Positions 4,715-23,981 of a stretch of 32,000 bases of DNA are shown piece after piece. A program made the position numbers and the translations under genes. Position 1 is the first letter of the stretch; each line of letters starts with the position of its first letter. This DNA comes from Pseudothioglobus sp. nBUS_23. Lineage in GTDB: Bacteria; Pseudomonadota; Gammaproteobacteria; PS1; Pseudothioglobaceae. The stretch is from positions 930,001-962,000 of the forward strand of contig NZ_CP179200.1 in NCBI RefSeq assembly GCF_051201565.1. The letters are read 5' to 3'. The notes beneath the pieces were generated by a model. It was given only the letters and a program-made list of their open reading frames with translations. It had not been told where the DNA came from and ran no database searches.

Positions 4715-6085
4715 TTAATTCTTTTTATATATCTTTAAAGCTTTCAGTACGTTGACCGCTTCGTGGACATAGTAATCTTCCATTAACAAGTCTACATACT
4801 CCTGGTCACGTGCATCCGTAATCTCATCTTGAGACTTTAAAATTTCTTCTGGAGTAAGTTCAGTTGGGTCTTCTGAAGTTGTCTCTTCTTCATCCTGAGC
4901 TGACAATGAATTCTTGAGGTCTTTTTCCTGAGAGCTGAAATCAATTGACTCTTCCTCATCCTCACTCTTCAGAGATATATTATCAAGCGCAATGTCAGGC
5001 GAAATTCCTTTGGCTTGTATTGACCTTCCAGAAGGAGTAAAGTATCTTGCTGTGGTTAATTTAAGGCCATAACCATCTTGAAGGCCCATCATTGACTGAA
5101 CAGACCCTTTACCAAAGGACTCCTCTCCCATAATAATTGCACGTTTATGGTCCTGAAGGGCGCCAGCTACAATCTCTGAAGCAGATGCAGAGCCTACGTT
5201 CATAAGCACCACAATAGGTGCACCATTCAAAATATCTCCAGGTTTGGTTGGGAACGACATGTTTGAGCTAGGGGTTCTGCCTTCTGTGTAAACTACAATA
5301 CCCGGCTCATCGATAAACAGGTTCGATATGTCGATTGAAGAATCTAATAAACCTCCAGGGTTATTTCGCAAATCAATAATAAGTGAATCTAGGTCTGATT
5401 CATTCTTCTCAACTAAATCTCCAATAATCTTTTCTACCACCTCAGCTGTAGGTCTTTGGAACTGAGCAATTCTAAGGTAGCCAATACCATCCTCAAGGAG
5501 AAGACCCTTTGCAGAAGTAACCGTGATTATCTCACGCGTGATTTCAACAACAAATGGAGCAATATCTGGCCTTCCTATGGTCAGTTTAATTGTTGTTCCT
5601 GGCGCTCCTCTCATTAACTTTACGCCTTCTTCAAGATTAATTTGACTCACATTTTGATCACCAATTTGTAAGATAATGTCTCCTGCTTTCAGACCAGCTC
5701 TATATGCGGGAGTATCATCTATAGGAGAAACTACCTCAATATAATCGCCTTTGGTTCCGATTACTATGCCAAGACCTCCAAATTTGCCCATGGTGCTCTC
5801 ACTTACCTTGGATTGATCCACTGGTTCAAGATAGCTGGAATGAGGATCTAAACCCTCAATGAGACCTCTTATAGCGTTATTAAATAAAGTTTCATCATCG
5901 ATTTCGTCAACATACATCTGTTTAATTTGTGAAAAAACAGCAGTAAAAGTATTTAGCCCCTCGAAGAAAGAGGGGGAATCGAGAGGGGAGTAGTTGTCTT
6001 CATCTGCTATGGATGGTGAAGAAAATAACAAGAGTGAACTTAAGGCAAAACATAATATTTTGGAAATTGACTTTAAATGATTCAT
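4715..6085 (-). CDS. ctpA: Carboxy-terminal processing protease (S41, PDZ domain)
   Basis: Signal peptide, PDZ AGLKAGDIILQIGDQ, Ser box NVGSASASEIVAGALQD, Lys box FGKGSVQ. Confidence 0.9.
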   Translation of the reverse strand: MNHLKSISKILCFALSSLLLFSSPSIADEDNYSPLDSPSFFEGLNTFTAVFSQIKQMYVDEIDDETLFNNAIRGLIEGLDPHSSYLEPVDQSKVSESTMGKFGGLGIVIGTKGDYIEVVSPIDDTPAYRAGLKAGDIILQIGDQNVSQINLEEGVKLMRGAPGTTIKLTIGRPDIAPFVVEITREIITVTSAKGLLLEDGIGYLRIAQFQRPTAEVVEKIIGDLVEKNESDLDSLIIDLRNNPGGLLDSSIDISNLFIDEPGIVVYTEGRTPSSNMSFPTKPGDILNGAPIVVLMNVGSASASEIVAGALQDHKRAIIMGEESFGKGSVQSMMGLQDGYGLKLTTARYFTPSGRSIQAKGISPDIALDNISLKSEDEEESIDFSSQEKDLKNSLSAQDEEETTSEDPTELTPEEILKSQDEITDARDQEYVDLLMEDYYVHEAVNVLKALKIYKKN

Positions 6086-9653: not shown

Positions 9654-9682
9654 TTGATAACAATTGAACTGCGGCGAATCAA
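9654..9682 (+). promoter_or_regulatory. Candidate promoter of tRNA-Arg copy 1
   Basis: TTGATA-17 nt-AATCAA about 10 nt upstream of tRNA; same layout as copy 2. Confidence 0.3.
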
Positions 9683-9691
9683 CTAAACATT

Positions 9692-9768
9692 GCGCTCGTA
9701 GCTCAGCTGGATAGAGTGTCGGCCTCCGAAGCCGAATGTCGGGTGTTCGAATCACCTCGAGCGCACCA
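9692..9768 (+). tRNA. tRNA-Arg (anticodon CCG), copy 1
   Basis: Hand-folded cloverleaf: acceptor GCGCTCG/CGAGCGC, D stem GCTC/GAGT, anticodon stem TCGGC/GCCGA, loop CTCCGAA, T stem GGGTG/CACCT with TTCGAAT loop, encoded CCA. Confidence 0.9.
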
Positions 9769-9834
9769 AATTTTCTACATATACCATAAGGCTTTCAGGG
9801 CTTTGCCCTAATCCAAATCAATCCTCCAAACGAC

Positions 9835-9860
9835 GAATTTCGTGCAAATTTCGTGCACTT
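9835..9860 (+). repeat. Left copy of 26-bp perfect direct repeat (2 x AATTTCGTGCA); candidate att or arm-type integrase site
   Basis: gaatttcgtgcaaatttcgtgcactt is identical to 23734..23759; lies 14 nt upstream of the integrase ATG. Confidence 0.8.
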
Positions 9861-9874
9861 AATGGAGATTTGAT

Positions 9875-10876
9875 ATGGCAAGCATACAAAAAGTAGTGAA
9901 TAAGAAGGGCGTCTCATATAGAGTTTATATCCGAAGAAAGGGATTACCCAATATTAATAAGACCTTTCCTTATAAGAAGGAAGCAAGAGACTTTATTTTA
10001 AAGATAGAGGAAAGTGAGATAAGTCACAGAGCCTTCAGCTCTAAGATGAACTTTAATACTCTTACAGGGATGTATCTAAGTAACGAGTACCTAGGGACTA
10101 AGCCGCAGATGCAAAGAAGCAGGCTGAAACACTGGCTTAATCATATGGGCGAGATGCCTATTATTGATATCCATAAAGAAGATATTTCTGCAGGCTTGGA
10201 TACGCTTCCTAAAAAGCTTAGCAATGCCACCGTTAATAAATACAAGAAGTTGGCATCCGTTGTCTTTAACTATGGAATCAGAGAGCTAGGTCTAACCGAG
10301 AACCCGACGCGATATATACGCTCTCTGCCTGAAAAGAAGGGAAGGACAAGATATTTATCAGATAATGAGAGAAAACGCCTATTTAGAGCTTGTAGGACTT
10401 CAAAATGGGAGTTGCTCTATCTACTTGTCTTAATGGCAATCACAACAGGAGCGAGGAGGGGAGAGCTACAAAGTTTGAGATGGAATGACATAGATTTTGA
10501 GAAACAAGCTGCTTATGTCAACATTTCTAAAAATGGAGAAGCTAAAGTATTGCCTTTAACGCCCGATGTTATTAATCAGCTTCAATTTTTTAATCAATAT
10601 GATAGTTCTCTAATATTTGGCTCAAAGATTACTCCATCAAAACCTTATGTCTTCTATAAACCTTGGAGGAAGGCAGTGGAAGAAGCAAATCTTGAAGACT
10701 TTAGATTCCACGATTTAAGGCACACTACAGCATCCTATTTAGCTCAAAATGGTGCAACTCTTCTTGAGATAGCAGATGTCTTAGGTCATAAACAAATAGA
10801 GGTGACAAAGCGTTATGCTCATCTCTGCATTGAGCATAAGTCGAGCCTTATAAATAGAGTGATGGGTAGTATTTAG
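9875..10876 (+). CDS. int: Tyrosine recombinase / phage-type integrase with AP2-like N-terminal arm-binding domain
   Basis: Catalytic ARRGEL (R), HDLRHT (HxxR), LGHKQIEVTKRYAH (Y); N-terminal KKGVSYRVYIRRKG; GGAG Shine-Dalgarno 7 nt upstream. Confidence 0.9.
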   Translation: MASIQKVVNKKGVSYRVYIRRKGLPNINKTFPYKKEARDFILKIEESEISHRAFSSKMNFNTLTGMYLSNEYLGTKPQMQRSRLKHWLNHMGEMPIIDIHKEDISAGLDTLPKKLSNATVNKYKKLASVVFNYGIRELGLTENPTRYIRSLPEKKGRTRYLSDNERKRLFRACRTSKWELLYLLVLMAITTGARRGELQSLRWNDIDFEKQAAYVNISKNGEAKVLPLTPDVINQLQFFNQYDSSLIFGSKITPSKPYVFYKPWRKAVEEANLEDFRFHDLRHTTASYLAQNGATLLEIADVLGHKQIEVTKRYAHLCIEHKSSLINRVMGSI

Positions 10877-10924: not shown

Positions 10925-12058
10925 ATGGAAGAATGGGAAAATTTTAATTCTCCTGATGAGTGGGAAGAATATTTTGTAAGACAAAAAATACGAAGCAAAA
11001 GGATTCTTAAACCAATTATCGCAAGCAATGAGGAGTTTCAGGGGGAATGGCAAGATTATGTCACCAAATGGCTTGGTGAGCAAATGCTTTACAATGGTGA
11101 TATTGAAGATTTTATAAAAACTGAGATTCATAGCGAAAGAACTGGGATTTTAATCCTCTTCCTAAAGATGCTCATTAAAGACTTTAGTCAAAAAGAACTT
11201 AAATTTTCAGATTTACAAAAAACCTCTGATGCAGATATTTATTTTGAACTAGCACTTGCATTAGCGGATATTAAATATCTATCTAGAAAATCATTAAATG
11301 ATGATGATGTAACTAGGGAAGTTATTGAAGAGGCTACTCGGCTCACATCGAATTATTCTAGACCAATTGAAACCCAAATTGCTGGAAAAAAGTATTCTGA
11401 CTCAAGAATGCTAATTTATCTAGATGATATAGATGCTGCATTGAGTATTTATTTAGAATCTGAAATTAGACATAGTGGAATTGACCTGTTATTCATTACG
11501 CTTTATGCCGACCAAGAAATCATCGCTTATATAGACGCAGCAGGAAAATCCAAATACTTTAAAGATGAACATTCTATGAAAAGCTTATTTAACTCAGATT
11601 TTTCAACCTCATTAGAAAGGGAGGAGGAATCAAAACTTCGAGCTGAAAAAGTATTTAGTAATAATAGTTTTGGAAGTTACAAATATATTGCATTATGGAT
11701 TATTTCTACTGTAATTGTATTATTAATAGCTACAAGCTTGGAGGTAAATGGAATCCTACCTGATGCCTATGGAATTGGGTCTTTATTTCCTATGTTTATC
11801 TTATATATTGTAGTAAGCTTTGTTCTTGGTTCTAATGCTCAAAAGAAACTGGATAATCCTAAAAAATATTTTCCAACATTAACGATGATTAGAAATATGG
11901 AGAATTTTTATTTTGCTATTAGACAAAAAAAACAAATGCTATGGAAAAGGGATGTAAAAAAAGAACTAGCTTTGTTGACAGATGCTGGTGCAGTTATGCC
12001 TGAGGGAATAATGAAAATAATTGCAGATATGGACAAAAGAGACAAAAGGTGGTTTTAA
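10925..12058 (+). CDS. Hypothetical protein: ~250-aa acidic cytoplasmic domain, 2 TM helices, basic C-terminal tail
   Basis: Long ORF; TM segments YIALWIISTVIVLLIATSL and IGSLFPMFILYIVVSFVLG; no motif I recognise. Confidence 0.6.
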   Translation: MEEWENFNSPDEWEEYFVRQKIRSKRILKPIIASNEEFQGEWQDYVTKWLGEQMLYNGDIEDFIKTEIHSERTGILILFLKMLIKDFSQKELKFSDLQKTSDADIYFELALALADIKYLSRKSLNDDDVTREVIEEATRLTSNYSRPIETQIAGKKYSDSRMLIYLDDIDAALSIYLESEIRHSGIDLLFITLYADQEIIAYIDAAGKSKYFKDEHSMKSLFNSDFSTSLEREEESKLRAEKVFSNNSFGSYKYIALWIISTVIVLLIATSLEVNGILPDAYGIGSLFPMFILYIVVSFVLGSNAQKKLDNPKKYFPTLTMIRNMENFYFAIRQKKQMLWKRDVKKELALLTDAGAVMPEGIMKIIADMDKRDKRWF

Positions 12059-12095
12059 AAAACCCTATTCTAAAAAGTTTTCAGGGCTTTAGCAC

Positions 12096-12123
12096 TTGAC
12101 TTTTAAGCTAAATAATATATGAT
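12096..12123 (+). promoter_or_regulatory. Candidate sigma70 promoter for 12228..12982 gene pair
   Basis: TTGACT-16 nt-TATGAT in the 169-bp gap after the 377-aa ORF. Confidence 0.35.
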
Positions 12124-12227
12124 TTAAGTGTAAGAAATAAAAGATTTGTTCACTCAAAGAACTAGGCGGTTGACCTCTATTGTACGCCTTGGGATTTTCC
12201 CTTAAGTACTCAAAAAAGGAGACAGCA

Positions 12228-12740
12228 ATGTCATACCAAAACCAATATAATAAAGACCACTTAGATATCATCATAGGTCCACCTGGACAGGAAAGACTCA
12301 TCGACTCCCTTTATCGTTGTGCTGAAAAGCATAATATGACTATTGATGAAGCCTGGTCAAAGCACGTAGAAAATAGAGCTGATAATCTTATGAAGCCTTT
12401 TTTAAGCTTTGATAGTTTTAGCGATATCTTTACCGCTTTTCTAGGAGAGGAGATTTATGTTCAGGATTACTTTTTAAGTCACTACTATGCTTTTTCTGCC
12501 AATGGGATGCTAATGGCTAGAATCAAAAATCCTGAGGATAGACAAAAATATACAGCACCAGCTCTTAATTTTCAGGCTAAGAACTTGCTTGATGTTAATG
12601 GCAATCCAATCAATATAAGAAGATTTGATTCCGACAGGAGGAAACAATTCCAAGAATTATTTATGCTTATATTTAATGCGAGTTGGGCGTATGTGACTAT
12701 TTCATATGATTATATGTCCATAAAAAAGGGGGCTAAATAA
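12228..12740 (+). CDS. Hypothetical cytoplasmic protein (170 aa)
   Basis: ATG preceded by AAGGAG Shine-Dalgarno (aaaaaggagacagcaATG); the TTG at 12180 in the track is less likely; stop overlaps next start (TAATG). Confidence 0.6.
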   Translation: MSYQNQYNKDHLDIIIGPPGQERLIDSLYRCAEKHNMTIDEAWSKHVENRADNLMKPFLSFDSFSDIFTAFLGEEIYVQDYFLSHYYAFSANGMLMARIKNPEDRQKYTAPALNFQAKNLLDVNGNPINIRRFDSDRRKQFQELFMLIFNASWAYVTISYDYMSIKKGAK

Positions 12741-12982
12741 TGCAAATTGATAAAAATACTCAAGCAGCTTTTTATTTTTATTCAGAGATGGTTAAAGATA
12801 GTCGTGGTTCACGTCCACGTGGTGCAGATGCTGAGTGGTTTGTTTCTTTAACTGAATCTGAAAGACAGGCTGAGATTCAGAGACACATCGATAGCGTTAA
12901 TGAGATGACTGAGTTTCTAGAAGCCGAATACAATGCTGATATTAAATACTTAAAGTCGTTTGGCGATTTTTTGAAAGAATAA
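12740..12982 (+). CDS. Hypothetical small acidic protein (80 aa), translationally coupled to upstream ORF
   Basis: TAATG overlap; no recognised motif. Confidence 0.55.
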   Translation: MQIDKNTQAAFYFYSEMVKDSRGSRPRGADAEWFVSLTESERQAEIQRHIDSVNEMTEFLEAEYNADIKYLKSFGDFLKE

Positions 12983-13054
12983 ACTCTGCATAATGATTAT
13001 GTGAATTGATACAAATAGGTATATTAAATTGTATTTACTTATTAATTGAATTTA

Positions 13055-13480
13055 ATGGATAAATATAACTTAAGTCGCTTCATAGAGGCTCAAGAGACAA
13101 CCTATGAGGGTGCTATGTTGGAGCTTGCTCGGGGCAGAAAAGAGAGTCATTGGGTCTGGTATGTCTTTCCTCAAATCGAGGGACTTGGTAAATCAGATAC
13201 AGCCAAATTTTACTCGATTAAAACTTTAGAGGAGGGCAGGGCTTATCTTGAGCATCCTGTGCTAGGTCCAAGACTCTTTGAGGCTTGCGAAATACTGCTT
13301 AGCCTTAAAGATGCTTCAATGAATAAAGTTATGGGATTTCCAGATGATTTGAAGCTTCTATCCTCAATGACCTTGTTTGAGTATATATTGGATGAAAGTT
13401 CTATCTTTACTAATATTATTGAGGCATATTTTGATGATGAGCGAGATGAGAATACATTAGAGATTATTGATGTTTCGTGA
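13055..13480 (+). CDS. DUF1810 family protein
   Basis: L.RFI.AQ...Y..A..EL..G.K.SHWVWYVFPQIEGLGKS matches the DUF1810 core; ATG at 13055 preferred over TTG at 13046. Confidence 0.7.
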   Translation: MDKYNLSRFIEAQETTYEGAMLELARGRKESHWVWYVFPQIEGLGKSDTAKFYSIKTLEEGRAYLEHPVLGPRLFEACEILLSLKDASMNKVMGFPDDLKLLSSMTLFEYILDESSIFTNIIEAYFDDERDENTLEIIDVS

Positions 13481-13693
13481 TGGAAGTGAAGTTAAAACCA
13501 AGTGCTTACTAGGTGCAGACTTAAGAAGTACAAAAAAATATATAATCAGACTTGAGGCAATTGTATTAATAATAGCCACCTGGGCAAAGTAGCAAACTCC
13601 GCTGCACAATTAGCATTTATTTTATTATGGGTTAATCTACACCATAAATTCATCAACAAAACATAAATCAATTCGTCTTACTTCATAGAATAG

Positions 13694-13790
13694 TAGTGTT
13701 GTTCTCCTAAAACACTAAAGTGAGATTAGATTGAATAGCGGACATTCTCACATCAAAGGTGCCTCTCCTAATTTCCTTTGAGTGTTCGCT
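13694..13790. ncRNA. Two stem-loops with identical TCTCCTAA loop motif (candidate structured RNA or leader)
   Basis: Hairpin 1: 13694-13700/13711-13717. Hairpin 2: inner stem 13753-13759/13775-13781 plus outer stem 13737-13744/13783-13790. The 8-mer TCTCCTAA is in both loops. Confidence 0.25.
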
Positions 13791-13806
13791 ATAAATTTGG
13801 TAACTA

Positions 13807-14001
13807 ATGAAACGACTACTACTACTTTTCTGTCTAACTTCTTTAAGCGTATCAGCCAGTCAAGAACAAATGATGTCAACTATCAATAATATAGCTGAAA
13901 TGACTCAAGAAGAGTATTTGAAAGAAATACTTCAAGCCACGGTATGCAGATGGGAATTAACTGAGGAGGAAAGATTATTTATCGAAAGCTCTTACTTCTA
14001 G
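13807..14001 (+). CDS. Small secreted hypothetical protein
   Basis: Signal peptide MKRLLLLFCLTSLSVSAS; first ORF of the dense array. Confidence 0.5.
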   Translation: MKRLLLLFCLTSLSVSASQEQMMSTINNIAEMTQEEYLKEILQATVCRWELTEEERLFIESSYF

Positions 14002-14135
14002 TTATTTTTTGCTCTCAATCAGTCTTTGCTGACTTAGACCAAGCTATTGCCTATGCTGAAGCAGGTGATGTTAGAAATGGACAAATAGAACTTTATAACA
14101 TTAGCCAAAGAGCACTGGAAGGACAACCCAAGTCG

Positions 14136-15321: not shown

Positions 15322-15546
15322 ATGATTAACTTTCTCAATTCAGTTCCGCTTTATCCAGGATGGCTATTTATCTTCTTTTCAGGGTTATTTTTCATAAAAC
15401 TCACAAAGCATCGTAAGCTAGGAAAAGTTATCCTAATTATATTTTCTATCCCTATTTTGTTTATTGTTGCCTCAACGATTTTTGGGATATGGCTAATGGA
15501 GACTAATCCAGGAGTTTTTCCAGGTGGGGAGGCATATACACCTTGA
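15322..15546 (+). CDS. Small 2-TM membrane protein, family B (member 1)
   Basis: HRKLGKVILIIFSIPILFIVA compared with DRRKLGISYLIIFSIPIILFLIA in 18908 ORF. Confidence 0.65.
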   Translation: MINFLNSVPLYPGWLFIFFSGLFFIKLTKHRKLGKVILIIFSIPILFIVASTIFGIWLMETNPGVFPGGEAYTP

Positions 15547-15758
15547 TTACAATCATAACGACAGCTTTTGTCTGGTTAGTATCTATAGCAGAAGCAATAA
15601 TTCTTTCTGTTATGAGTTTCTTTGCAGTCATACTTATGCTCTGGACTTTTACTATGGCTGGAATCTCTGCAGATGAGAATGGACAGCAACTCTATTGTGA
15701 AACTTCTAAAACTGGAGTTGAGAACTGCTTTATGAGGGAATGGAGCATAGTAGATTAA
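15543..15758 (+). CDS. Small hydrophobic protein, family A (member 3); TTG start
   Basis: TTGA overlap with upstream stop; the conserved family region lies upstream of the first ATG, which supports the TTG start. Confidence 0.6.
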   Translation: MITIITTAFVWLVSIAEAIILSVMSFFAVILMLWTFTMAGISADENGQQLYCETSKTGVENCFMREWSIVD

Positions 15759-15759
15759 T

Positions 15760-16056
15760 ATGAACAATGCCTGGACAGAAGAACAAACAAAGGAATCTGT
15801 AAGGAGGCAAAAGAAAGCCCTATTAATCGCAATTCCAAGCATTCCTATAATATTGTTTGCTTTAATGGCAGCATTTGGCTACATTCTCCACCATTGGTTT
15901 ATGGAACCCCCAGAATATCATTTACAAATAGAGCAATTAATTGAAAGAGGATATCTAAGTGAAGATTTCACTACTATTGAATATTTAAACTTCTGTGAAA
16001 ATATAGAGCAGAGCTTATATGACACTTATGATTATGTCTGCCGATGGATTGATTAA
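15760..16056 (+). CDS. Membrane-anchored WTEEQTK-family protein (family C)
   Basis: MNNAWTEEQTKESVRRQKKAL + TM; paralog of 7510 ORF outside the island. Confidence 0.65.
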   Translation: MNNAWTEEQTKESVRRQKKALLIAIPSIPIILFALMAAFGYILHHWFMEPPEYHLQIEQLIERGYLSEDFTTIEYLNFCENIEQSLYDTYDYVCRWID

Positions 16057-18727: not shown

Positions 18728-18907
18728 ATGCTAAGAATAATAATTTTAGGTCTTTGGATTTTCTGTCTAATTAATGGGATTCAGAGGCTGCGTTCTAATC
18801 GTCAAAAGTCAGGAATAGTCCTTGTATCAATCTTCTTACTTTTTGCTTTAGTTTTGTTTATATCCTTTGCAGCTTTTGACCCAAGGTTTATCAACTATGA
18901 GAACTAA
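18728..18907 (+). CDS. Small 2-TM membrane protein, family B (member 2); 59 aa, absent from the ORF track
   Basis: My translation: MLRIIILGLWIFCLINGIQRLRSNRQKSGIVLVSIFLLFALVLFISFAAFDPRFINYEN. Same TM-RxxRK.G-TM layout as 15322 and 18908; exactly fills the gap between neighbours. Confidence 0.55.
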   Translation: MLRIIILGLWIFCLINGIQRLRSNRQKSGIVLVSIFLLFALVLFISFAAFDPRFINYEN

Positions 18908-19135
18908 ATGCTTTTAATAATCTTCTTAGTCCTTTGGGCATTCACTCTTTTTTATGGCATCAGCCTAATAAGAACTGATAGACGTAAATTAGGTATTTCA
19001 TATTTAATTATTTTCTCTATTCCTATAATTCTTTTTCTAATTGCTGATTGGTTTATTGATTTCTCTTATCTTGATTGTATGTTTAGAGGTACCTCGAATG
19101 CTGCAGAAAGGATGGAGTACTGTAGGTCACTTTAA
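18908..19135 (+). CDS. Small 2-TM membrane protein, family B (member 3)
   Basis: RRKLGISYLIIFSIPIILFLIA paralogy with 15322 ORF. Confidence 0.65.
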   Translation: MLLIIFLVLWAFTLFYGISLIRTDRRKLGISYLIIFSIPIILFLIADWFIDFSYLDCMFRGTSNAAERMEYCRSL

Positions 19136-19887: not shown

Positions 19888-21369
19888 ATGACCATAGAAA
19901 ACAAAAAAAGCACAATAAAGACAGCAGACTCTATGCTAATTGAGTACGCAAAAAAAGAGTGTTGGTTGTTTTGTGATAATCAAAATGAGCCTTATGCAAA
20001 AATTCTAGTTGATAGACATATCGAAACTTGGGGGATACACTCCCAGGGTTTTGGAGACTTGCTGCGAAGTTGGTATTTTAAAAAGACTAAAAGAGGAGTT
20101 AATCAAAGCCAATTAGACAGTGCAATAATGACCATTTCAGCAATTGCTAATTATGATGGCCATCGGGAAGATGTTTATCTTCGTGTTGCTCAAATAGAAG
20201 AAAAAATATACATAGATATCTGTGATAAAAACTGGAGTGTTATCGAGGTGACAAATAGAGGATGGTCTGTCATTGATATTGCTCCTGTAGCTTTTACTAG
20301 AACCAATAATATGAAGCCACTTCCTTATCCAAAAGGCGGAAATGGCGTGAAGTATTTACTAAGGCACATAAATATACAAGAAGAAGAATTGCCTTTACTG
20401 ACTGGATGGCTTTTAATGGCTTTACAGGCTGGAGAGGGGGCTTATCCTTCTTTATTGATAAATGGGCCAGCTGGCTCTGGAAAATCAACAGCTTGCCGAA
20501 TGATTAGGTCTTTAATAGACCCAAATAAAGCAGATTTATTGACTCAACCAAGTATCAGTGATTTAAGAATTGTTGGAATGAATAACCACATACTTGCTTT
20601 TGATAACATTAGTAAAGTTAGTCCAACTTTTAGTGATGCTATTTGTAAAATTTCAACGGGTGATAATCAATCTATTAGAAGGCTATATACAACCAATGGA
20701 GAGATGACAGTTTCAATTAAGAAGCCAACTATTTTGAATGGCATTCCCGAGCTTGCAAAACGAAGTGATTTGGCAAGTAGAAGTCTAAAGCTGACACTAC
20801 AAAAAGTTAAGCACAGAAAAACAGAAAAAGAGGCTTGGGCTGATTTTAATGAAGATGCACCAAGTATTTTAAAGGGCTTACTTACTGGGCTTAGTAGGGC
20901 TTTAGCAAACCTAGAGCATACTGAAATAAATGATATGACTCGAATGGCCGATTTCTGTATGTGGGCTACAGCTGCACATACTGCTTATGGTTGGGATAAA
21001 ACCACCTTTATTAACGCCTATGCAAAGAATGTAAAAGAATCTCACATTGACTCGTTGGAATCCTCCCCTTTTGCTTCTTCTATAGTTAAGATGTGTGAAG
21101 ATGGCAGCTTCTTTCACGGAAGGCCATTAGAGCTTTTAGAGGAAATTGAATCCCAATATTCTTCTACAAAAATTACCCACTCAGTGACTTGGGTTAAGAC
21201 TGCTAAAGGTGTTATTGAACAACTCGATAGAAATGAGGAGTCGCTTGAATCTATTGGTATTTATTATCAAAAGTATAAAGATAGAACAAATAAGACATTT
21301 GTTAAAGTAGGTGACTTAGAGTTTATAAACTCATCTAGTGAGCCAACAACCCCTATTTACGATTTTTAA
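19888..21369 (+). CDS. P-loop NTPase, SF3-helicase / element replication-initiator-like protein
   Basis: Walker A INGPAGSGKST, Walker B-like HILAFDNIS, ~190-aa N-terminal domain; GGGAGAG Shine-Dalgarno; followed by iteron region. Confidence 0.6.
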   Translation: MTIENKKSTIKTADSMLIEYAKKECWLFCDNQNEPYAKILVDRHIETWGIHSQGFGDLLRSWYFKKTKRGVNQSQLDSAIMTISAIANYDGHREDVYLRVAQIEEKIYIDICDKNWSVIEVTNRGWSVIDIAPVAFTRTNNMKPLPYPKGGNGVKYLLRHINIQEEELPLLTGWLLMALQAGEGAYPSLLINGPAGSGKSTACRMIRSLIDPNKADLLTQPSISDLRIVGMNNHILAFDNISKVSPTFSDAICKISTGDNQSIRRLYTTNGEMTVSIKKPTILNGIPELAKRSDLASRSLKLTLQKVKHRKTEKEAWADFNEDAPSILKGLLTGLSRALANLEHTEINDMTRMADFCMWATAAHTAYGWDKTTFINAYAKNVKESHIDSLESSPFASSIVKMCEDGSFFHGRPLELLEEIESQYSSTKITHSVTWVKTAKGVIEQLDRNEESLESIGIYYQKYKDRTNKTFVKVGDLEFINSSSEPTTPIYDF

Positions 21370-22116: not shown

Positions 22117-22605
22117 ATGAAAAAATATGTCTACGTATTTGCTCTTTTAATAAGCTTACTTGGCTCTTCATTTGTCCACTCTTCAGAAGCATTACTCACA
22201 AAAGGATACAATAAAGCACTTGATGGAAATTATGGTGAGGCATATAGAATACTTCAGCCTTTAGCTTCTCAGGGCTATATTGAAGCACAATTCAACCTAG
22301 GTATGATGTTTCAAAATGGAGGAAATGGACTTCAAAGGAACTATTCAAGTTCGGCATATTGGTTTAACCAAGCAGCACTTCAGGGAGACCAAAATTCACA
22401 ATTTGAGTTGTCTGGTATTTATTACAGGGGGTTAGGAGTTAAAAAAGACCTAAGTCAAGCAAAATATTGGGCTAAATTAGCTTCGCAAGGAAGTAATCCA
22501 ACAATTGCGAGCCGCTCAAGAGAATTCCTAAAGAATCAAATGTCTTGGTGGGAGAAACAAAAGTTAGGAGCCTCTACAATCTTTGGTATTTTTACTGGAA
22601 ATTAA
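22117..22605 (+). CDS. Secreted Sel1-like repeat protein
   Basis: MKKYVYVFALLISLLGSSFVHS signal; ASQGYIEAQFNLGMMFQNG...AALQGDQNSQFELSGIYYRGLGVKKDLSQAKYWAKLA. Confidence 0.8.
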   Translation: MKKYVYVFALLISLLGSSFVHSSEALLTKGYNKALDGNYGEAYRILQPLASQGYIEAQFNLGMMFQNGGNGLQRNYSSSAYWFNQAALQGDQNSQFELSGIYYRGLGVKKDLSQAKYWAKLASQGSNPTIASRSREFLKNQMSWWEKQKLGASTIFGIFTGN

Positions 22606-23733: not shown

Positions 23734-23759
23734 GAATTTCGTGCAAATTTCGTGCACTT
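23734..23759 (+). repeat. Right copy of 26-bp direct repeat (2 x AATTTCGTGCA)
   Basis: Identical to 9835..9860; a degenerate extra unit aatttcggcct lies at 23721. Confidence 0.8.
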
Positions 23760-23841: not shown

Positions 23842-23869
23842 TTGGTATTGCTGGTCTGCGGCGTATATA
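23842..23869 (+). promoter_or_regulatory. Candidate promoter of tRNA-Arg copy 2
   Basis: TTGGTA-16 nt-TATATA ending about 10 nt before the tRNA. Confidence 0.4.
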
Positions 23870-23878
23870 GCAAACATT

Positions 23879-23955
23879 GCGCTCGTAGCTCAGCTGGATA
23901 GAGTGTCGGTCTCCGAAGCCGAATGTCGGGTGTTCGAATCACCTCGAGCGCACCA
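23879..23955 (+). tRNA. tRNA-Arg (anticodon CCG), copy 2
   Basis: 76/77 identical to copy 1; the single C-to-T change turns the C31-G39 pair into U-G, so the cloverleaf is preserved. Confidence 0.9.
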
Positions 23956-23981
23956 TTTTTTAAAATTAAGTTTAATAGACT

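Follow-up and report, generated by a model that had tools for sequence, protein, structure and literature searches.

We analysed a stretch of 32,000 nucleotides (the window; contig NZ_CP179200.1) from Pseudothioglobus sp. nBUS_23, a marine sulfur-oxidising gammaproteobacterium of the SUP05/Ca. Thioglobus clade, in which the gene of a tyrosine integrase (int) is followed by four others, for proteins of 377, 170 and 80 residues (proteins P1, P2 and P3) and for a protein of the DUF1810 family. An original prediction, made from the sequence alone, had taken these four for one module and a candidate for anti-phage defence or accessory cargo. It is likely that the region holds instead an operon, consisting of a promoter, an S-adenosylmethionine (SAM) riboswitch of class SAM-V, the genes for P2 and P3 and probably that for the DUF1810 protein, beside an independent cargo gene for protein P1. 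The riboswitch belongs to a known class of aptamers but occurs in a clade new to that class, and it has a variant ligand pocket, an added 5′ hairpin and atypical, mobile regulated genes. Coordinates are collected in Table 1; the RNA stems P0, P1, P2 and P3 are distinct from proteins P1, P2 and P3 and are called stems or hairpins throughout.

Table 1. Positions in the window of the riboswitch operon, of protein P1 and of the island that carries them
Feature	Position	Strand	Description
Promoter, sigma-70-like	12096-12123	+	TTGACT-16-TATGAT; for the riboswitch operon
Hairpin P0	12148-12162	+	extra 5′ hairpin before the aptamer, outside the Rfam SAM-V model; found by minimum free energy (MFE) fold
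SAM-V-class aptamer	12164-12221	+	stem P1 AGGC/GCCU, third strand GGUUG, stem P2 UUGUAC/GUAC..AA, stem P3 GGG/CCC
Shine-Dalgarno	12216-12221	+	AAGGAG; 3′ end of the aptamer; ATG at 12228
Protein P2	12228-12740	+	170 residues, soluble alpha/beta; first gene of the riboswitch operon, ATG after AAGGAG
Protein P3	12740-12982	+	80 residues, acidic; optional partner, TAATG stop/start overlap with P2
DUF1810 protein	13055-13480	+	141 residues, Rv1873 family; probable last operon gene; Pfam PF08837, E 3.7e-53
Protein P1	10925-12058	+	orphan, 377 residues; acidic helical N-domain, two transmembrane (TM) helices, basic C-tail
tRNA-Arg(CCG)	9692-9768	+	left island boundary; ARAGORN, Rfam tRNA
Tyrosine integrase (int)	9875-10876	+	Pfam Phage_integrase, E 1.3e-30; PHROG 1 integrase, E 2.2e-60
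Replication protein	19888-21369	+	493 residues, P-loop, primase/helicase-like; island backbone; 51% identical to a 529-residue protein of locus L011
tRNA-Arg(CCG)	23879-23955		second, near-identical copy

A SAM-V-class riboswitch in the leader of P2 genes

We collected 99 loci around relatives of proteins P1, P2 and P3, located five window proteins in them and clustered all their open reading frames. When the 200 nucleotides upstream of P2 were aligned for 31 loci, the last ~90 before the start codon proved highly conserved, even where the P2 proteins are only 47-57% identical to that of the window, and beyond this leader the loci shared nothing but a −10-like hexamer set at a constant distance. 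Against the Rfam SAM-V model (RF01826) the window's leader gives a match over the full model (positions 1-66) at 12155-12224, with 38.9 bits and an E-value of 2.6e-5 in a permissive scan of 12050-12300; in a scan of the whole window the E-value is 0.0052 and this is the only non-tRNA cis-regulatory match. Leaders upstream of P2 in six other loci (L035, L065, L005, L003, L002 and L020) score 41.9-47.1 bits, above the RF01826 cut-off of 41. The riboswitch is present in all of the 61 distinct P2 leaders from other loci that have at least 100 nucleotides upstream, at identities to the window's P2 down to 47%. A promoter and a strong Shine-Dalgarno had already been seen in the 169-bp gap before P2, and both are there; what the original prediction missed is that this is no plain gap, as it contains the riboswitch, and that the Shine-Dalgarno is the riboswitch's own 3′ end. 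The window and all aligned leaders have the Shine-Dalgarno directly 3′ of the aptamer and the start codon within ~10 nucleotides.

The structure was tested on 62 distinct leaders, with the pseudoknot written from the SAM-V model, the extra 5′ hairpin added, and slid pairing partners as the control. Pseudoknot pairing holds in 94.4% of cells compared to at most 59% with slid partners, and double-sided compensatory changes are seen in six pairs compared to at most one. Covariation exchanges C:G for U:A and G:C for A:U in stem P1 and G:C for A:U in stem P2; across the same leaders three of the five pairs of hairpin P0 have changed on both sides. An H-type pseudoknot, with a stem P1 of 4 bp, a stem P2 of 6 bp and a hairpin at stem P3, is thus backed by covariation. 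The MFE of the leader has a z-score of ~0, as expected because the pseudoknot is small, and thermodynamics alone would not reveal the RNA.

Described SAM-V leaders precede metY, bhmT, mmuM and metH (PMC2704228), and the window RNA has the same elements, of the same length and in the same order, as the RF01826 leaders of metY, bhmT and mmuM in 'Ca. Pelagibacter ubique' (PDB ID: 6FZ0): a 4-bp stem P1, a U-rich third strand, a 6-bp stem P2 with a bulged U, a small P3 hairpin, a run of A and the Shine-Dalgarno. Set beside the crystallised metY RNA (6FZ0) and the bhmT RNA validated by isothermal titration calorimetry (PMC6061858), it matches almost base for base in stem P1 (AGGC/GCCU), UAUUGUAC...GUACU, AAAAA and GGAG; stem P1 and most of stem P2 are identical to metY, and the dimensions agree with those of SAM-V in Fig. 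S5 of PMC6061858. The related SAM-II riboswitches (RF00521) share the H-type pseudoknot and the triplex ligand pocket, and the cores of SAM-V and SAM-II superimpose at 0.37 Å (PMC6061858). However, SAM-II has a stem P1 of at least 6 bp, a stem P2 of 4 bp and no stem P3, whereas the window RNA has SAM-V dimensions, and the Rfam scan of the window leader reports SAM-V and not SAM-II. The ligand-pocket nucleotides U9/U10, U19/U20/G21, the bulged U47 and A48-A50 are all present in the window; A7 has become G, and a C is inserted between U47 and A48. Beyond this pocket, the SUP05 leaders differ from the known SAM-V cases in their host, a gammaproteobacterium where those hosts are SAR11 or Bacteroidetes, in leading orphan island cargo rather than methionine genes, in the conserved 5′ hairpin and in occurring as tandem copies within an island.

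The leaders fall into four sequence types, A to D. Type C, which includes the six high-scoring leaders named above, is canonical and passes the Rfam threshold; the pockets of types C and D are both canonical, and type D lacks one nucleotide in the descending strand of stem P2 and scores ~33.5 bits. Type A, found in the window and in L006, L019, L027 and L099, and type B have GGUUG for AUUUG in the third strand together with an extra C right after the bulged U, and score 34-40.7 bits; types B and D together span 33-40.7 bits. The third-strand change and the inserted C are perfectly correlated across 36 distinct cores, and to judge from these sequences the variant of types A and B seems to be compensated in its architecture, not decayed. 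P2 genes that are 98% identical, for instance those of L020 and L021, can also have leaders of different types, and this exchange suggests that the types are functionally equivalent.

A covariance model of our own, built from the 62 leaders, finds 111 matches in 91 sources, a single one of them in the window. All secondary copies are of type D and precede P2 paralogs of 144-150 residues, an unrelated family of 140-150 residues, peptides of 43-50 residues and cytoplasmic Sel1-repeat proteins, with up to three riboswitch-gene cassettes in tandem (L087, L017 and L025). Two or three tandem leaders with a different gene behind each (for P2, a P2 paralog, a Sel1 protein, a protein of 140-150 residues or a small peptide) are seen at L087 775-2047, L017 1488-2889, L025 202-1736 and L028 1049-4651. 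A short leader pattern has 45 matches among IMG/VR viral contigs, none of which this model accepts as a real copy. Literature searches found no report joining riboswitches with SUP05, or SAM riboswitches with restriction-modification loci, and the SUP05 leader signatures were not found in the available part of the text of the original SAM-V alignment.

The probable P2 operon and its neighbour P1

The best-supported reading of 12096-13480 is a single transcription unit made up of the promoter, a 5′ untranslated region of ~97 nucleotides with the riboswitch, P2, the coupled P3 and, probably, DUF1810. Promoter-like sites in the region are no commoner than in shuffles (18 compared to 16.7), but the promoter proposed at the outset gains support because a −10-like hexamer is found equally far from the conserved leader where the upstream sequence of the loci is otherwise unrelated. 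No terminator-like site was found on the + strand between P2 and 13480, and DUF1810 adjoins P2 or P3 in 13 other loci, so that DUF1810 is probably co-transcribed with P2 and P3. We saw no convincing terminator on the + strand after DUF1810 or after P1.

Protein P2 is the constant element and the hub of a recurrent arrangement. Gene order was counted downstream in 50 distinct P2 loci whose downstream sequence is 1 kb or longer, and upstream in 28 with enough upstream sequence. P3 directly follows P2 in 12 of the 50. DUF1810 is downstream in 19, adjoining P2 or P3 at 30-70 nucleotides in 13 and lying behind inserted genes of up to 938 residues in the other 6, and neither gene follows in 22. Upstream, P1 is present in 2 of the 28 loci, namely L006 (standing for the lineage L006-L010) and one more. 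The single four-gene module of the original prediction is not supported by these counts: the trio of 377-, 170- and 80-residue proteins, whose failure to co-occur across genomes had been named beforehand as speaking against it, does not co-occur. What had been read directly off the sequence was accurate, including the open reading frames, the TAATG overlap and the gaps of 169 bp (12059-12227) and 326 bp (13481-13806), as well as the DUF1810 identity; proteins P1, P2 and P3 did prove unrecognisable, with no match in Pfam, NCBIfam, PADLOC or PHROGs.

The commonest upstream neighbour of the riboswitch-P2 unit is a Slr1353_N protein of ~220 residues (PHROG 11717, function unknown), often after a MORN-repeat protein; it is found at L001 9168-9833, L003 8630-9241, L006 5029-5694 and in at least 20 other loci. 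Other P2 loci have divergent AlpA and TerS-like genes upstream. Downstream of the P2 operon, sister islands often carry C5 and Eco57I-type DNA methyltransferases with restriction partners. The homologues of the window genes are confined to mosaic SUP05 islands, and relatives of proteins P1, P2 and P3 come nearly all from marine metagenomes, the named ones being Candidatus Thioglobus (SUP05).

Protein P1 is rare membrane-anchored cargo, in a variable slot after int and independent of the riboswitch operon. The architecture first described for it is borne out by hydropathy and isoelectric point (pI): residues 1-245 are acidic (pI 4.7), hydrophobic segments lie at ~249-279 and 281-305, and the tail at 311-377 is basic (pI 10.0). 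Only 9 relatives were found among 5.8 billion clustered proteins, searches of the PDB with the single sequence and with an alignment profile were empty, and the AlphaFold2 (AF2) model is poor (predicted local distance difference test, pLDDT, 52.6) and unfit for a fold search. In the lineage L006-L010, P1 is fused to an N-terminal extension of 260 residues and P3 is absent, with the order int-P1-P2 kept. P1 occurs without P2 at the far end of a different integrase/HTH_17/primase-like island in L011 and next to a gene for 143 residues in L014, and the slot between int and P2 holds other genes elsewhere, such as a C5 methyltransferase in L027 and MORN/Slr1353_N genes in L003.

Protein P2 had 86 relatives in the clustered protein search, all marine or SUP05. 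Searched exhaustively with an HMMER profile, 1.84 billion representatives yielded only 27 clusters (50% identity) of its family, none of them named or with a Pfam domain; P2 is present in only 3 of 185,579 species genomes and in zero IMG/VR viral contigs. The AF2 model is confident (pLDDT 84), and Foldseek comparison with the PDB and BFVD gave no match with E < 0.01 or a query-normalised TM score above 0.37; alignment-profile searches of the PDB were empty for P2 and P3. Weak ferredoxin-like and CRESS-Rep fold matches were considered, and an assignment as HUH endonuclease was dropped as the H85-Y86 motif is, by eye, apparently not kept in the distant homologues inspected. Since these homologues seem, by eye and without a formal alignment, to share no more than a GPPG turn and residues of hydrophobic or aromatic kind, with polar catalytic ones not conserved, P2 is more likely to be a binding or regulatory protein than an enzyme.

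P3 (pI 4.7) has more than 177 relatives, and among 19 that were aligned the identity to the window protein is 76-93%. In two contexts it is followed by a HxsD/radical-SAM system, a cluster of HxsD, two radical-SAM, His-Xaa-Ser and CCP_MauG genes seen in L101 (28-5868) and in the contig of P0184; the former contig begins at P3, and in the latter P3 is preceded by a gene for 111 residues and not by the 170-residue P2. The DUF1810 protein matches PF08837 with 179.5 bits (cut-off 25) over profile positions 2-136 of 136, and is homologous over its full length to Rv1873 (PDB ID: 2JEK; E 3.5e-34). Our literature searches on DUF1810, PF08837, Rv1873 and Slr1353 turned up nothing functional, DUF1810/Rv1873 being mentioned only incidentally, and we found no report tying it to a riboswitch operon.

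Proposed regulation by the leader and competing explanations

Methionine and SAM biosynthesis are the textbook targets of SAM riboswitches, and class SAM-V is marked by binding SAM more than 1000-fold over S-adenosylhomocysteine (SAH) and by SAM-dependent repression. Described members are translational OFF switches, in which bound SAM stabilises both the triplex and a short helix, P2a, by which the Shine-Dalgarno is occluded (PMC6061858). By analogy with the metY and bhmT RNAs we infer SAM as the ligand of the window copy and the same OFF-switch logic, with expression at low SAM. When SAM is high, it would bind the triplex at stem P2 and stabilise a short helix that includes the Shine-Dalgarno, so blocking translation of P2, and the block would pass to P3 through the TAATG overlap; when SAM is low, the Shine-Dalgarno would be free and both proteins made. 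At best guess, the role of the operon is to let the cell or the island cope with SAM shortage, for example with its effects on the SAM-dependent DNA methyltransferases and radical-SAM enzymes often encoded downstream in sister islands.

Several observations weigh against a SAM-responsive operon that extends to DUF1810. The window's leader, at 38.9 bits, falls ~2 bits short of the Rfam gathering score of 41. Leaders of types A and B have the extra C just after the U that pairs with the adenine of SAM, and G where metY and bhmT have A7, so that SAM binding by the window copy is not assured. The regulated genes are without a known link to methionine or SAM metabolism, unlike those of the described SAM-V cases, and the 72-nucleotide gap between P3 and DUF1810 comes with a weak promoter-like site (12971-13000), which speaks against the probable co-transcription of DUF1810.

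A leader derived from SAM-V but with a changed ligand, such as SAH, a SAM breakdown product or an unrelated cation, would explain the altered binding-site nucleotides and the unusual genes together. Types A and B, with their G7 and the inserted C next to U47, lie below the Rfam cut-off, the gene associations are unrelated to methionine, and variants of known riboswitch classes with changed ligands and gene sets are well documented, as in the SAM-I variants that sense spermidine (PMC10853860). We nevertheless consider this doubtful, as the same P2 genes are driven by type C leaders, which score above the cut-off and keep A7, U8-U10, U47 and A48-A50, as the exchange of types between the 98% identical P2 genes argues that all types do the same job, and as bhmT, a validated SAM binder, itself has a G at the U8 position. 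P2, P3 and DUF1810 could also be unrecognised functions of methionine or SAM salvage, ordinary targets of a SAM riboswitch that are island-borne by chance; expression at low SAM would fit such a role, and in L005 P2 adjoins a glycine-betaine ABC transporter cluster. This too is rather unlikely, given the apparent lack (by eye) of conserved polar catalytic residues in distant P2 homologues, the rarity of a family of 27 clusters among 1.84 billion proteins and 3 of 185,579 species genomes, the use of the same leader for Sel1-repeat proteins and 43-50-residue peptides, and neighbours that are mostly mobile-element and restriction-modification genes.

Those same neighbours, together with the mobile islands, the TAATG overlap of two small genes and the acidity of P3, could point to a toxin-antitoxin pair or an anti-restriction pair by which the island is stabilised or protected, with the riboswitch only tuning its level. 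We find this improbable: P3 is absent from 38 of the 50 P2 loci and follows the 111-residue gene in one other context, P2 is often directly followed by DUF1810 or a second riboswitch cassette, and neither protein resembles toxin, antitoxin or Ard families in Pfam, NCBIfam, PADLOC or the PDB, nor does P2 have a fold match. That P1, P2, P3 and DUF1810 together form one abortive-infection-like anti-phage system, in which soluble sensors would be joined by P1 as effector in the membrane, is very improbable. Protein P1 does combine a soluble domain with two TM helices, the order int-P1-P2 is kept in the one other lineage L006-L010, and P2 operons elsewhere often abut restriction-modification genes; against this, P1 is found with P2 in only 2 of 28 loci and without it in L011 and L014, P3 and DUF1810 are each optional, and P2 has its own promoter and riboswitch, apart from P1. 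Nor is there positive evidence for the sensor-effector defence role that was first proposed: PADLOC-DB 2.0 gave nothing for the four proteins at E-values up to 1, for the 9 relatives of P1 or for 10 other island proteins, and only noise for the P2 relatives (E ≥ 0.003 in 40 x 5027 tests). The frequent restriction-modification neighbours of P2 operons elsewhere nevertheless keep some role in defence conceivable.

The preferred reading of a SAM-V operon beside independent cargo leaves room for a defensive use of another kind, which we think unlikely. The leaders might be sensors of infection or stress, opened by a collapse of SAM that follows starvation or phage SAM lyases disarming SAM-dependent restriction; the cargo beside restriction-modification genes (the P2 family with or without P3, DUF1810, Sel1 proteins and small peptides) would then be released as a back-up to the loss of methylation or restriction. 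Riboswitch-gated sensing of this sort would be a mode not described for defence islands. As it stands, an orphan protein family carried on integrase-borne islands of the abundant marine SUP05 clade always has a SAM-V-class element as its leader; this element is frequently found beside SAM-consuming DNA methyltransferases, and in sister islands it leads several other cargo genes too. Should the RNA bind SAM, it would define a SAM-starvation regulon on mobile DNA and offer a first way into the function of P2, P3 and DUF1810 (Rv1873), the last a widespread domain whose structure is solved; should types A and B bind something else, a new riboswitch specificity would be at hand.

The tRNA-bounded island

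That the genes are accessory cargo of an integrase island, as the original prediction also proposed, holds: they lie between the two tRNA-Arg(CCG) copies, along with int and the primase/helicase-like gene, and their homologues are in mosaic SUP05 islands. A direct repeat of 106 nucleotides spans both tRNA copies (9669-9774 and 23856-23961, 92% identity), and the ~14.2 kb between them have a lower G+C content (0.32-0.37). With int adjoining a tRNA gene that is directly repeated at the opposite end, the arrangement is that of a tyrosine-recombinase island. The 529-residue protein of L011 (1905-3494) that resembles the window's replication protein matches PHROG 1829 (DNA primase) and belongs to an otherwise different island, which also bears the P1 homologue; protein P1 may travel with this primase-like replication module.

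The attachment at tRNA-Arg with a duplicated tRNA, int at one end and a primase/helicase-like gene recall the tRNA-integrated islands of the P4-like and phage-inducible chromosomal island (PICI)-like kinds, as do the AlpA and TerS-like genes of the sister islands and their mosaic cargo, which includes restriction-modification. Unlike those, the window's cargo consists of small secreted, TM and Sel1 proteins rather than known defence systems, and among the window's genes we identified none for a capsid or for packaging and no known satellite hallmark.

Two further repeats were noted. An exact direct repeat of 26 nucleotides, GAATTTCGTGCAAATTTCGTGCACTT (a tandem of TTTCGTGCA), lies at 9835-9860 and 23734-23759, just inside both ends of the tRNA-bounded island and in one case 15 nucleotides upstream of int; the copies are candidates for integrase arm-type sites or for the true att core. 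A 25-nucleotide repeat (..TTTCAGGGCTTT) with 80% identity is found at 9780-9804, directly after the tRNA, and at 12066-12090, directly after the stop codon of protein P1. The block of int and P1 that it brackets could have been acquired separately, and the repeat may also have arisen by chance.

The island is a mosaic of shuffled mini-cassettes. Blocks of 200-440 bp at 13626-14032, 15323-15775, 18902-19135 and 22167-22604, with one gene each for a small secreted or TM protein, recur at 82-93% identity and in other orders in L001-L004, and many of the mini-cassettes have a common signal-peptide start, ATGAAAAAACTACTA. The window segment 18905-19131 sits directly upstream of protein P2 in L002. 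Elsewhere in the window, a sub-threshold Rfam match to the Rickettsia sRNA47 at 5094-5212 on the + strand (45 bits, cut-off 60) runs antisense within an S41 peptidase gene (4715-6085) and is probably a coding-sequence artefact.

At 9514-9570 of L004, window position 9724 is joined to 12307, skipping int, protein P1 and the riboswitch; a relative of the window's chromosomal flank, 96.5% identical, there runs to the middle of the tRNA-Arg and jumps into the interior of P2, either through a deletion or as a chimera of metagenome assembly. In L003 (Ca. Thioglobus sp. NP1), a remnant of the 3′ end of int, with 91% identity to int residues 300-333, lies directly after P3 (10334-10435), which suggests that islands have accumulated in tandem and that the P2-P3 operon lies where two of them join.

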